Positions 9,249-13,510 of a stretch of 32,000 nt of DNA are shown here, in pieces. The notes below the pieces were generated by a model. That model made no database searches and had not been told where the DNA came from. It saw nothing but the letters and a program-made list of their open reading frames with translations. Origin of the DNA: Promethearchaeum syntrophicum (GTDB lineage Archaea > Asgardarchaeota > Lokiarchaeia > Sigyniarchaeales > Promethearchaeaceae); NCBI RefSeq assembly GCF_008000775.2, contig NZ_CP042905.2, positions 810,001 through 842,000 on the forward strand. The letters run 5' to 3'. The position numbers were made by a program, and so were the translations under genes. Position 1 is the first letter of the stretch. Each line of letters opens with the position of its first letter.

Positions 9249-11138
9249 ATGGCTAAACTCTATCACTCTCCGCCAGCACTCCTACCTAAGGGTACTAGGA
9301 AATACGTTGAGTTAGCTGGTTCTAAGAGTTTTTTAGCCATAGATGAAGAAAAAGATTTTATAAATGTAAGAAATATCTTTGATGAGCTCTCTTTAGGGGA
9401 ATATTGGCGAGATACAAAGATTTCTTCCCAAATAGAAAAATTAACTATAAAACATGAAGATGCAGAAGCACTTTATGATTCAAATATTTTAGTCGAAAGA
9501 ATTATCTCAACTTTGGATGACATTATGTCCAAAGGGCTTATTTTTCTTGGCATTGCGAGTTTCGAGGGAAATGCTTTTGAAACAAGTGTTTTTGACGAAA
9601 TGGATTTAGCTTGGGAAGATCAAGAAACTTTAATGAATTTATATAATAAAAGTAGGATGCAAGAAGTTTTTCCAGATGTAAGGAAAGGATTAGTAGATTC
9701 AAATGAATATGTCGAATGTAACTGGTTTGGAACAGCTTCTAAGTATTTTACTTTACCAGGAAAAAAAAATTTGAACGAAATTGCAGCAATGCTATATCCT
9801 TACAGCGGAAATGTATCTGGAATTGTAGCTGTTGCTCAAGGAGCAGCAAATTTTATAATTTTAACTGATTCATTTTTGAAATCAAACTCAACCGATACTG
9901 GAGAAATTAGAATTGATATAGATAATTTAAATCAAATGTTTCATCTTGTTGAAAAAGGAGTTTTAGCTACTCCAATATCATGGTTCAAAATAGATTTTGG
10001 TTTAAAATCTTTAGAGGTTTTAACAGGATGGGACGAAATAAAAGATTTGGAGCAAATTAAAAAAGTACAAGATAGATATTTAGAATATCATAAAAACTTG
10101 ATAAAACAAAAGAAGAAAACAATTGAAAATATTTTAGATGAGGATTTAGGAAGAATAATAGATATAAGTTGTATGACAGAAGAAGAGATTGAGAGCGACT
10201 TGAGTGAATGTATGGCCACATTAAATACTCTGAATGAAATGCAATTATCAAGTCAAGAAATAAGTCTACTCTATAAACCTCCAAAAGTACTATTTTCCTA
10301 TGGAGATTTAAAAAGAGCTGCAATTTTTGGTGCAATGTCTTTACTTTCCATTGATATTGGCTCAAATATATTATGTGTTGCCGATTTAAGGATGAATTTA
10401 TCTTGGGGTGAATACGTATATGATGAATTTTACAAAAAAATTGATGATGATTCTTTTCTAAATTTAGAAGGTGATAAAGATTTCATTGAACTTGAAAACC
10501 CTTTGCAATTACGAGATATTTATAGTAAATCTTTCCAGGATATCATGCATGGGGGAGAAATTTTCTTAGGCCTATTAGAATTAGAATCAAATGCATTTGA
10601 ATTCAGTCTTTTTCAAGAATTAGATATCGGAGAACAAGATTTAGAAACTCTTCAACAATTTTATCAAGATAAATCTGAAGTAAAACTTCCATCTTTAAAA
10701 GATGGCCATGTTCAGATTCGATGGTTTGGTGATGGAAAAGAATATTTCACTTTTATAAATCATGATTGTATCGGAATATATGATTTGGCTGACATTATTT
10801 GCTCAGATCCTGCATATGATAATAAATATGCTACAGGAATTGTATGTTTTGATTCAGATTCAACATATTTTTTTATTTTAAATAATAATTTCAAAAAAAA
10901 TTCAAATGTGATTGATGAAGAAGCCTTGGAAATAATGTATCACAAATTACTAAAATCCGATATGGCGCCTTTGTGTTGGTTTAAAATAACTTTAGGATTG
11001 GAAAGTTTGAAAAAACATGCGTTTTGGAAGCAAGCTTCTCAATTTTCTACTTTAGGAATAATTCTTCAGAACTATAAGAAATATTTAATGGGACTAACTA
11101 TCATTAAAGAGAAAGAAAAGAAATACCGAATTTATTAA
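9249..11138 (+). CDS. uncharacterised protein A: two tandem copies of a novel ~290 aa module (paralog of the next gene)
   Basis: A 629-codon ORF in stop-rich DNA, with a purine-rich GAAGGG 8 nt upstream of the ATG. Modules span aa 1-~300 and aa 338-629 (nt 10260-11135). They share collinear motifs with each other and with both modules of the downstream ORF (see findings). No known family or catalytic motif recognised. Confidence 0.85.
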   Translation: MAKLYHSPPALLPKGTRKYVELAGSKSFLAIDEEKDFINVRNIFDELSLGEYWRDTKISSQIEKLTIKHEDAEALYDSNILVERIISTLDDIMSKGLIFLGIASFEGNAFETSVFDEMDLAWEDQETLMNLYNKSRMQEVFPDVRKGLVDSNEYVECNWFGTASKYFTLPGKKNLNEIAAMLYPYSGNVSGIVAVAQGAANFIILTDSFLKSNSTDTGEIRIDIDNLNQMFHLVEKGVLATPISWFKIDFGLKSLEVLTGWDEIKDLEQIKKVQDRYLEYHKNLIKQKKKTIENILDEDLGRIIDISCMTEEEIESDLSECMATLNTLNEMQLSSQEISLLYKPPKVLFSYGDLKRAAIFGAMSLLSIDIGSNILCVADLRMNLSWGEYVYDEFYKKIDDDSFLNLEGDKDFIELENPLQLRDIYSKSFQDIMHGGEIFLGLLELESNAFEFSLFQELDIGEQDLETLQQFYQDKSEVKLPSLKDGHVQIRWFGDGKEYFTFINHDCIGIYDLADIICSDPAYDNKYATGIVCFDSDSTYFFILNNNFKKNSNVIDEEALEIMYHKLLKSDMAPLCWFKITLGLESLKKHAFWKQASQFSTLGIILQNYKKYLMGLTIIKEKEKKYRIY

Positions 11139-11170
11139 ATTAACTCATTCCAATTAAAGGATGAAACAAA

Positions 11171-13510
11171 ATGAAAATTTACTTCCCTACTCCATTGATA
11201 TTTGCTGAATCTGATCCATCAGAATTGCTTAAATATGCACACTCTATTGGAATGATTGCACTAAATAATGATAAAGAACTTGTAATGGTTAGAGAAATCT
11301 ATTATCCATCAATTTGGAATTCATTTTATTCTCAAATAAAGACTATAAACATAAGTAAGATTAATATAAAGAAAAATCCGATTGAAGATCCATCAAGTAT
11401 TTCAATGATAGGAGATGAAATTGAAAAAGGGTTAAGATATATTATTTCAAAAGGCTATATTTTTCTGGGATTACTGTATTTTGATTCAGAAGTTCTCGAT
11501 CCGCAAATATGTGAAGAACATAGCTGGTTTAGAAAAAGGGATCTCGCTTTTAAAAATATGCTATCAAAATATCAAATTAGGGGGATTTCTCCAAAATTAA
11601 ATGGAAATTATATTGAATCAGGTTTTATCGGTCGTGGTGAAGATTTTTTTAAATTTAAAGATCGAAATTTCCAACAAATTTCTCAATCAACAACAATATT
11701 TCGAGGTTCTATGAATGGAATAGCAGGATTATATCAAGATCACCTCCAATTCACTATTCTCTCACAAAATATTACTCAAGGGAAGGAAATTCCCGAGTTA
11801 ATATTCGATAAAATTGGTAAACAAACCTTAGAGAGGCTAGTCAAAACAAAAAAATTCTTCCCTGCATTAGGATTTCGATTCGATTATGGAATTGATTCTT
11901 TTAAACAGCTTCCCAATAATATTTGGAGTTCCATAGAATTAATACCAAAATACTCGAATAATATTAAAAAATTCTTATCTTACTTAAAATCTCAAATTCA
12001 AAATATTAAATCCCCATTTCCATTAATAGATCTTGAATCTCCGTTCGACATCGATAAGTTAAATACAGAAATTGAAGAAAAACCAACTTTATCAGTTGAT
12101 GATCTCCTAAAAGGTCCAAAACTAGTTAAATCTACAGAAAAGATTGCACTAAAAAAACCGATAATTAAACCAGCACCTATGAAACTACATAAAGTTGATC
12201 TTCCCACTCCAATTATTGAACAACAAGATGAAATTGAAAAAAAACCTCAAATCAACATTATAAAACCACCCGTTCCCAAAGTTCCTCTAAAGCTAATTGA
12301 AGAAATTTCTGATGAAGAAATTTCTACTCCAGAAAAATATGAAGATATTTTCAATAAACCTTCTGTTGAAATTTTTGAAAAAAAAGATGAAATGATTATT
12401 GATGGTGAAATTTCGAAAGATATCTTGCGAAATGCTACAGATTTTATAGAAAGTGATTTCGGATCACCGATTGATCCTTTAAATATGAACGAAGATACTA
12501 TTACCAACGATCTATTGGCTTCACTTAATGCTATGTCTGAACTTGATAAATTAGCTCAGAAAGATGAAGCAATAAGTCGAATATTCTACCCTCCGCGAGC
12601 ATTATTCTCCTATTCTAATAAGGAAGGTATGGAAATTGGGGGATGTACGGTACTAGTTAGTATGGGAGTTGGGAGAGAAATAAGTATGCTAACCGAATTT
12701 GCAAAGGATCAGACTTGGGCAGTTTTTGATAATGAAATAGACGAAGGAAATCCTCAAATCAAATTTATTATTCCAAAAGAAGGGACATTTATTGATGAAC
12801 CAGAAGACCTGGAACGAATTATCCATAATGGATTTATTAATATAAAAAGAAATAATCATGTTTTTCTCGGAATTTGCGAAATAAACGGTAATGGATTCGA
12901 AACAAACAGTTTTGAAACTGAGTTAGAAATGAAAACTGAAGATTTGATAAAGCTAAATGAAATTTATTTAGATAGAATTAAAACAATAACCTATCCTCCC
13001 TTAGTTGAAGATAAATGGATAGAGATTCATTATATTGGAAACGAAAAAACGATTGAATTTCTCACCAATCCAAGTTCAGTAGGAATTCTAGATATAGCTT
13101 ATGATACTATCAACGATATGCGATATTCAAAAGGTAAACTAAGCGGAATTATTTGTGTTGATGAGGAAGCTGCATATTTTTTTATTTTAACTACAAATTT
13201 CGATAATTTATCGACAGAAAATCCCAATAATTCAATTGATTATGAAAATCTTTCAAAAATGTACGAATTAATTGAAGCAAGTAAAGACACAACTAAATTA
13301 ACTCCTGTTTCATGGTGTCAAATTGGATTTGGATTTCAAGCATTTCAAAATGTACCCTTATGGTTTGATGTTAAAGATGGATCCATTATGGAAATTGTAA
13401 AAGAGAATTACAATAAGTATATTAAAGGGATTTTAAATACTAAAGAACGTGAAGATGAATTAAGAATAAAAATTGAATCCGAATTTCCAGATATTAACAA
13501 AAAAGAATAA
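11171..13510 (+). CDS. uncharacterised protein B: two copies of the same novel module separated by a 186 aa Pro/Lys/Glu-rich linker
   Basis: A 779-codon ORF starting 32 nt after the stop of protein A, with AAGGATGA upstream. Module B1 is aa 1-281 (11171-12013), the linker is aa 282-467 (12014-12571), and module B2 is aa 468-779 (12572-13507). Protein-level conservation among the four modules argues for real coding. Confidence 0.85.
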   Translation: MKIYFPTPLIFAESDPSELLKYAHSIGMIALNNDKELVMVREIYYPSIWNSFYSQIKTINISKINIKKNPIEDPSSISMIGDEIEKGLRYIISKGYIFLGLLYFDSEVLDPQICEEHSWFRKRDLAFKNMLSKYQIRGISPKLNGNYIESGFIGRGEDFFKFKDRNFQQISQSTTIFRGSMNGIAGLYQDHLQFTILSQNITQGKEIPELIFDKIGKQTLERLVKTKKFFPALGFRFDYGIDSFKQLPNNIWSSIELIPKYSNNIKKFLSYLKSQIQNIKSPFPLIDLESPFDIDKLNTEIEEKPTLSVDDLLKGPKLVKSTEKIALKKPIIKPAPMKLHKVDLPTPIIEQQDEIEKKPQINIIKPPVPKVPLKLIEEISDEEISTPEKYEDIFNKPSVEIFEKKDEMIIDGEISKDILRNATDFIESDFGSPIDPLNMNEDTITNDLLASLNAMSELDKLAQKDEAISRIFYPPRALFSYSNKEGMEIGGCTVLVSMGVGREISMLTEFAKDQTWAVFDNEIDEGNPQIKFIIPKEGTFIDEPEDLERIIHNGFINIKRNNHVFLGICEINGNGFETNSFETELEMKTEDLIKLNEIYLDRIKTITYPPLVEDKWIEIHYIGNEKTIEFLTNPSSVGILDIAYDTINDMRYSKGKLSGIICVDEEAAYFFILTTNFDNLSTENPNNSIDYENLSKMYELIEASKDTTKLTPVSWCQIGFGFQAFQNVPLWFDVKDGSIMEIVKENYNKYIKGILNTKEREDELRIKIESEFPDINKKE

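Follow-up and report, generated by a model that had tools for sequence, protein, structure and literature searches.

Four diverged copies of an uncharacterised alpha/beta module in two adjacent Lokiarchaeia genes, and a possible hetero-oligomeric scaffold

What two neighbouring genes built from four copies of one protein module might encode is the question raised by positions 9,249 to 13,510 of a 32,000-nucleotide (nt) stretch of Promethearchaeum syntrophicum MK-D1 DNA (contig NZ_CP042905.2, positions 810,001 to 842,000 of the forward strand; hereafter the window). The two genes, open reading frame (ORF) A and ORF B, each carry twice the same module of about 290 amino acids (aa), and this module defines a family that is restricted to Lokiarchaeia. 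The reading that we favour, with a probability of about 0.4, is that A and B would be two subunits of a Lokiarchaeia-specific, cytoplasmic and non-catalytic scaffold, a hetero-oligomer formed from four diverged ~290-aa alpha/beta domains, possibly together with a NuoC/NuoD-like protein encoded upstream. The parts of the two genes, in window coordinates and with isoelectric points (pI) where they matter, are as follows.

9249..11138, + strand: ORF A (DSAG12_01307), 629 aa; module A1, a linker with the tail helix, module A2 and a conserved C-terminal ...YRIY
9249..10124, + strand: module A1, aa 1-292 of A; the most conserved copy; acidic, mean pI 5.2
10179..10247, + strand: tail helix of A1, aa 311-333 of A, MTEEEIESDLSECMATLNTLNEM; inside the inter-module linker; predicted helical
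10254..11135, + strand: module A2, aa 336-629 of A; acidic; its nearest relative is B2
11171..13510, + strand: ORF B (DSAG12_01308), 779 aa; module B1, a long variable linker with a tail helix, and module B2
11171..12025, + strand: module B1, aa 1-285 of B; the most diverged copy and the only basic one
12026..12565, + strand: B linker, aa 286-465 of B; tail helix at its end (aa ~439-464, nt 12485-12562)
12566..13465, + strand: module B2, aa 466-765 of B; the most acidic copy, mean pI 4.6

The layout of two genes separated by a 32-nt spacer is exactly that described in an earlier reading made from the letters alone (the sequence-only reading), in which only the word 'giant' was overstated, since 629 and 779 aa are ordinary sizes. 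Both start codons are preceded by Shine-Dalgarno-like sequences (GGTGA and GGATGA), and the GC content is flat over the region (~0.29-0.31). Proteins 100% identical to A and B are DSAG12_01307 and DSAG12_01308 of P. syntrophicum MK-D1, entered in the gene table of Imachi et al. (2020, Supplementary Table 3, PMC7015854) as 'hypothetical protein', with rows that hold no COG, arCOG or KEGG assignment and no flag as eukaryotic signature protein. The transcript levels given there in reads per kilobase per million (RPKM) are 197 for A, 216 for B, and 205, 163 and 171 for the three genes upstream of A, the value of 171 belonging to the NuoC/D-like gene. A literature search on the DSAG12 locus tags and on orphan NuoD in Lokiarchaeia returned only this gene-expression table. 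The two genes have been public since 2020 solely as 'hypothetical protein', and they represent a real, uncharacterised protein family.

The central claim of the sequence-only reading, that A and B each contain the same module twice, was examined by BLASTP with composition-based statistics, and all six pairings of the four modules were significant (E=1e-40 to 3e-5). The closest pair is A2 and B2 (E=1e-40), followed by A1 and A2 (E=2e-30, with 31% identity across 299 columns), A1 and B2 (E=3e-21), A1 and B1 (E=1e-15), B1 and B2 (E=3e-6), and A2 and B1 (E=3e-5). The five collinear motif blocks, which had been recognized by eye, fall into the same columns of a MAFFT alignment of 82 orthologue modules, and in each orthologue of A and B the profile made from this alignment matches two full-length modules (positions ~1-290). 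Symmetry between the N-terminal and C-terminal halves of a single module was tested and is absent. The helix that had been noticed ahead of the second module lies within the best A/B alignment, is predicted helical at A 311-333, and is seen again in single-module homologues, as their C-terminal tail. Motif scanning of A and B bore out the reported absence of Walker A, CxxC and HxH motifs, to which GxGxxG can be added. A hydropathy scan also agreed with the description of the two proteins as soluble: the peak Kyte-Doolittle value for a 19-residue span, 1.71, falls on a stretch that is predicted as beta strands, and for this reason no transmembrane segment is assigned to A or B. The B linker has a high content of K, E, D, I and P, differs in both length and sequence among orthologues, and is therefore probably disordered.

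The module had been called unassigned, and it stayed so after searches of Pfam, NCBIfam, PADLOC and PDB sequences, and after Foldseek comparison with PDB and BFVD. In Pfam, nothing was accepted for A, B, each of 34 modules (E up to 10) or ten single-module proteins: Leptin (best E=0.00097) was matched by only 3 of the 34 modules and far under its cut-off, and POC1 (E=0.056) was likewise not accepted. NCBIfam gave no match for A or B, and PADLOC gave nothing for B and for A only Cas6b at E=0.034 without a qualifying stretch. PDB chain sequences were queried using both proteins and two module profiles. With phmmer, A matched proteasome alpha-5 (E=0.0032) over residues 260-322 only, in the helical linker rich in K and E, and this match was treated as compositional. 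A relation to proteasomes, Ntn-hydrolases or PAC-type assembly chaperones was rejected, the Foldseek match to a proteasome beta subunit having an E above 1; the HbYX motif has Tyr in the penultimate position, where the C-terminal ...YRIY of A has Ile. A marginal match to residues 160-206 of the ciliary protein Enkurin (E=0.028), made by the profile of the C-terminal helix plus the 'LSxEE..L..L' tail (A ~261-333, and the tails of relatives P0061-P0087), is probably compositional as well, and no Pfam Enkurin match was found.

For structure prediction AlphaFold2 was employed. Module A1, modelled with the 34-sequence module alignment, reached a predicted local distance difference test score (pLDDT) of 89.8 and a predicted template-modelling score (pTM) of 0.89, and the model contains nine strands and about eight helices in the order b1, b2, b3, b4, aA, b5, conserved loop, aB, b6, aC, aD, b7, b8, aE, b9, short helices and long C-terminal helix (b, strand; a, helix). 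The model of whole A (pLDDT 82, pTM 0.49) points to two modules that are each well defined but whose orientation to one another is not confident. Foldseek searches with the whole-A and single-module models against PDB, and against BFVD, gave nothing at E<=0.001, the best values being 0.3 (PDB) and 0.09 (BFVD); template-modelling scores (TM-scores) normalised to the target rose up to 0.34 on short local alignments, those normalised to the query stayed at or below 0.16, and the root-mean-square deviation was mostly 7-25 A.

Several named families were compared with A and B. An identity as MPN/JAMM domains is opposed by the lack of HxH in A and B and of any JAB/MPN match in Pfam for A, B or the 34 modules at E up to 10; an MPN-like fold stays among the candidates taken up below. 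Actin-like ATPases (ASKHA), of the RNase-H-like fold, were rejected for the lack of DxGxG and GxGxxG in A and B, and because the whole-A model gave a single marginal hexokinase match (E=4.8) and the module model gave no such match. Longin and Roadblock domains gave no Pfam match and no chain among the top 50 Foldseek matches. An identity of A or B as subunits of complex I or [NiFe]-hydrogenase is contradicted by the absence of any such Pfam or NCBIfam match and of CxxC.

The alternative that survives best concerns the novelty of the fold itself: the module could belong, in extremely diverged form, to a known alpha/beta superfold, MPN-like, GAF/profilin-like or an RNase-H/actin-like half-domain, which the limited fold search (Foldseek against PDB) missed. 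The N-terminal half follows the order b-b-b-a-b-a-b-a, which we take to be that of the RNase-H-like half-domain, and two groups recur among the weak Foldseek matches, namely MPN/JAMM domains (CSN6, Sst2, eIF3f/h, Rpn8 and Cap3; probability <=0.12, TM-scores <=0.32) and GAF domains (PDE6 and IclR). Against it stand the poor best Foldseek values and low TM-scores obtained with a query of such high pTM, the absence of a JAMM or phosphate-binding motif, and the hhalign probabilities of below 1% for the module profile against a Prok-JAB protein (0.4%) and a Fuz-longin protein (0.35%). We regard a missed known superfold as a real contender, even if a doubtful one.

The relatives of A and B were collected in three ways. 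A word-indexed search of 5.8 billion proteins yielded 36 relatives of A, all at least 46% identical, and 18 of B, and those with names come from Lokiarchaeota or Promethearchaeota assemblies, except for one fragment labelled Heimdallarchaeota, a label that looks wrong. When 1.84 billion cluster representatives were searched exhaustively with the module profile by HMMER, only 76 proteins were obtained, the named ones all from Lokiarchaeia except for one fragment that looks mislabelled and a spurious repeat protein of animal origin (P0067, 'ebh-like', 5535 aa, of Branchiostoma lanceolatum), in which profile positions 149-194 were matched 28 times. An unnamed protein of 3,875 aa (P0082), with 16 matches to the same positions, is likewise spurious. 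Finally, in a scan with the A alignment that covered one genome for each GTDB species, A was present in nine, comprising Promethearchaeum spp., Harpocratesius repetitus, Lokiarchaeum ossiferum and metagenome-assembled genomes (MAGs). The phyletic profile, for which the sequence-only reading had pointed to archaeal and especially Asgard genomes, thus places the domain family within Asgard archaea and restricts it to Lokiarchaeia.

Besides A and B, the family includes single-module proteins, which measure 309-355 aa when complete. Those exemplified by MCK4281425.1 (Lokiarchaeota MAG) and MHA1847705.1 (Promethearchaeota MAG) carry the same full-length ~290-aa module, with profile E values of 1e-29 to 1e-72, and end with the conserved amphipathic tail (e.g. 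LSEEEKKKVLKNLNECKEKLEELL), whose motif is found also in the linker ahead of the second module of A (MTEEEIESDLSECMATLNTL) and of B (NMNEDTITNDLLASLNAMSEL). They differ from A and B in having one module each and in lacking both the long linker and a basic copy of the B1 type, and all are annotated 'hypothetical protein', so that no functional knowledge is gained from them. Fused forms are known as well. A protein of 844 aa from another Lokiarchaeia lineage (P0083, locus L020 7001-9535; P0088 is a related partial sequence) joins one module to a long array of tetratricopeptide repeats (TPR), which hints at an adaptor role of the module. The B orthologues outside Promethearchaeum (P0050, P0053, P0057 and that of L. 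ossiferum, locus L002 11937-14393) carry a C-terminal zinc ribbon (PF13240, CxxC...CxxC), which is lost from B of MK-D1. Both kinds of fusion fit an adaptor role.

In order to trace how the four copies arose, we constructed a neighbour-joining tree of modules, in which A1 groups with the single-module proteins, A2 pairs with B2, B1 forms a separate long branch, and the TPR-fused forms are basal; by BLAST, B1 is nearer to A1 than to A2. The sequence-only reading had proposed a duplication followed by another duplication, and this tree agrees with it. The simplest history consists of three steps, from a single module plus tail, through a duplication within the gene (module-tail-module), to a gene duplication into A and B with accelerated change of B1. 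The positions of two single-module genes agree with these steps: one adjoins genes for a dUTPase and a ~152-aa protein, the pair flanking B in the window, and the other adjoins S8 peptidase and NuoC/D-like genes, the pair flanking A.

The four copies differ in constraint and in charge. When MK-D1 was compared with two distant lineages, identity decreased in the order A1 (0.56-0.59), A2 (0.49-0.50), B2 (0.43-0.48) and B1 (0.37-0.41). In B1 the motifs FEGNAFE and AQGAANF are replaced, and the copy has an invariant motif of its own, ILSQNIT. The B1 copies of all 12 orthologues are basic (mean pI 9.0, net charge about +7); the pI values of A1, A2, B2 and every single module lie on the acidic side, at 4.5-5.9.

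This pattern bears on a second alternative, that the module is an enzyme of a new type or a ligand- or metal-binding domain, its site lying in the acidic loop after strand 5 (F-E-G-N-A-F-E, with E117 and D223) and the AQGAANF hairpin, kept in A1, A2 and B2 and degenerate in B1, as in pairs of active enzyme and pseudo-enzyme. FEGNAFE and AQGAANF are indeed invariant in all 29 A1 orthologues, A1 and A2 keep residues E106, N108, F110 and E117, B2 keeps them in part and B1 has substitutions there, and nearly all single-module proteins have E-x-[N/D]-x-F. The residues that are invariant throughout the family are just three, G101, G191 and P242, with E106-x-[N/D]108-x-F110 nearly so; no polar residue is invariant family-wide, and the lack of any conserved His, Cys, Ser or Lys argues against an enzyme, as does the failure to find a known catalytic motif, a motif for binding nucleotides or metals (HxH, CxxC in the latter case), or a match to any enzyme family or fold. 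We consider such a site unlikely.

The genes around A and B that enter the argument are the following.

5683-6966, + strand: S8 peptidase (subtilase) gene, upstream; kept in most loci
6994..7575, + strand: YdjM-family gene, its 3' end overlapping the start of the NuoC/D-like gene by 20 nt; hydrophobic by eye; kept upstream in most loci
7556..9172, + strand: NuoC/NuoD-like fusion gene (DSAG12_01306), 538 aa; diverged, only 4 Cys; annotated in the genome as FpoD/NuoCD
13516-14016, - strand: dUTPase gene, convergent with B and 5 nt apart (13511-13515)
14078-14536, + strand: ~152-aa gene, conserved; the orthologue in locus L003 matches Acetyltransf_1

A and B are adjacent, co-directional and 12-93 nt apart in every locus examined, and the order NuoC/D-like, A, B was found in 14 of 14 A-carrying loci by a local hidden Markov model scan of the retrieved loci. 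The YdjM-family gene may belong to the same operon as these three. The NuoC/D-like protein matches Complex1_49kDa (E=1.7e-25) and the NuoD, FpoD and HycE-type models, and NuoC weakly, with model scores of about 100-120 bits against family cut-offs of 360-600; motif scanning of the protein found no CGxC or DPCxxC NiFe motif. Its orthologues (identity at least 34%), which share contigs with A and B, are from Lokiarchaeia only, and the next-best matches are group-4 hydrogenase large subunits with 23-28% identity. No NuoB, NuoH or NuoI gene adjoins it, and the first half of the MK-D1 gene table holds no such product name. The likeness to the NuoC/NuoD fusion and HycE of complex I and group-4 [NiFe] hydrogenase is confined to this neighbour and does not extend to A or B, and even the neighbour departs from those subunits in its sub-cut-off scores, its lack of NiFe motifs and its lack of the accompanying genes. 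The A/B module profile is not related to it by hhalign (probability 0.2%). Elsewhere, a NuoC/D-like orthologue (E=5e-99) adjoins one single-module gene in convergent orientation.

A few observations on the locus stand apart. In L. ossiferum (locus L002 4272-6353) a Roadblock/LC7 gene, a Fuz_longin gene and two genes of ~150 aa lie directly upstream of the S8-YdjM-NuoC/D-A-B block; these genes are absent from that position in MK-D1. A T-rich stretch at 13511-13527, overlapping the 3' end of the dUTPase gene, could be a shared bidirectional terminator. Three antisense or overlapping ORFs of 86-102 aa on the minus strand, at 10057-10365 inside A, at 12247-12507 inside B and at 14017-14295 opposite the ~152-aa gene, are most likely not genes. 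A known anti-phage defence system was rejected, the PADLOC search being negative and the locus being a stable chromosomal syntenic block, and an origin from a defence island or mobile element was rejected on the grounds of the flat GC content and the stable synteny with housekeeping genes.

That A and B might be independent, partly redundant paralogues, which assemble neither with each other nor with the NuoC/D-like protein and are neighbours through tandem duplication and conserved gene order, is quite unlikely: tandem duplicates are adjacent by origin, the 15-kb neighbourhood is wholly syntenic across genomes and the single-module relatives are mostly solitary, but the pair has been kept in all 14 loci over genera only ~50% identical with asymmetric divergence (A1 56-59% versus B1 37-41%) and the charge reversal of B1 is lineage-wide, which argues for sub-functionalisation within one unit rather than redundancy.

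The scaffold that we favour would have developed along the following line. The ancestral unit would be one acidic module that continues through a flexible linker into a short, amphipathic tail helix with the consensus L-S-x-E-E...L..L, a type that appears to persist as the single-module proteins of other Lokiarchaeia. If the tail helix docks on a neighbouring module, single-module proteins would self-associate. The duplication within the gene would then have fixed two modules in a single polypeptide, with the tail helix of the first now part of the linker, and the later gene duplication would have given A and B. The switch of B1 to basic charge may have allowed electrostatic pairing with the acidic modules or anchoring to an acidic surface. 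Such an assembly would probably act with the degenerate NuoC/D-like neighbour and perhaps also with the YdjM-family protein. The strict co-occurrence of A and B, their near-equal expression and the charge reversal of B1 make the pseudo-symmetric hetero-oligomer that the sequence-only reading had suggested plausible. We counted in favour of the scaffold the four-way homology, the constant adjacency of A and B, the Shine-Dalgarno-like sequences ahead of both genes, the shared tail motif, the module tree, the charge of B1, the lack of conserved residues typical of enzymes, the fusions to TPR arrays and a zinc ribbon, the similar transcript levels of A, B and the NuoC/D-like gene, and the synteny.

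Several points weigh against this proposal. The two-module model has the low pTM noted above, its tail helix is of moderate confidence, and no docking is confidently predicted. The near-conserved acidic motif E106-x-[N/D]108-x-F110, together with E117 and D223, might form a site for metal binding or catalysis. The whole block of ~15 kb, including genes for a flavin adenine dinucleotide (FAD)-binding oxidoreductase, the S8 peptidase, the dUTPase and arginyl-tRNA synthetase (ArgRS), is also syntenic, so that the adjacency of A, B and the NuoC/D-like gene is weak evidence of a functional link and may be inherited gene order. No NuoC/D-like gene is found nearby in 4 of 5 locus types with single-module or TPR-fused genes. 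The association of A with B, the docking of the tail helix, the non-enzymatic role and the partnership with the NuoC/D-like protein are all inferred, and any function assigned to the module family is at this stage a guess.

Two known kinds of assembly resemble the proposed one by analogy only. The heterodimers of MPN+ and MPN- subunits (Rpn11-Rpn8 and CSN5-CSN6) are pairs of diverged alpha/beta paralogues in which a polar motif is kept in one copy and lost in the other, and MPN domains are the most recurrent, non-significant Foldseek matches of the module; the A/B module is unlike MPN in its lack of a JAMM motif and of any Pfam or HH match, in TM-scores that do not exceed 0.32, and in being about twice the size of the MPN domain. 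The tri-longin heterodimers (Mon1-Ccz1 and Fuzzy-Inturned) combine two multi-domain alpha/beta paralogues in a pseudo-symmetric heterodimer, and Fuz_longin and Roadblock genes are found a few kb upstream in L. ossiferum; the A/B module shares no sequence or profile similarity with longin, and by our own reading its order of secondary structure differs from the longin order.

A bolder version of the scaffold proposal would take the module as a new fold and would join A, B and the NuoC/D-like protein that lacks the NiFe cysteines, with the YdjM-family protein perhaps as an anchor, in a previously unknown Lokiarchaeia-specific machine. In this machine a catalytic subunit of complex I or hydrogenase would have been co-opted for a non-redox role, and fusion and gene duplication would have made a four-module hetero-complex out of a homo-oligomer. 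Taken as a whole this version is improbable, about as much so as an enzymatic site.

Much of the Lokiarchaeia proteome lacks annotation, and to our knowledge this class includes the only long-cultured Asgard archaea. The exhaustive profile search found no eukaryotic homologues of the module family, the Branchiostoma match being spurious, and the family thus has no direct bearing on eukaryogenesis; no long-standing question becomes testable through it, and its interest is moderate. What the analysis defines is a clean domain family that is both expressed and strongly conserved; its structure is predicted with confidence, and no relative could be detected at the level of family or fold. Its duplication history can be traced from one module to two fused modules and then to two genes, with the charge of B1 reversed, and the family keeps a persistent link with a cofactor-less NuoC/D homologue that is itself an orphan. 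Should the complex prove real, it would be an archaeal example of homo-oligomers becoming obligate hetero-oligomers, and also an example of the co-option of a complex-I/hydrogenase subunit.

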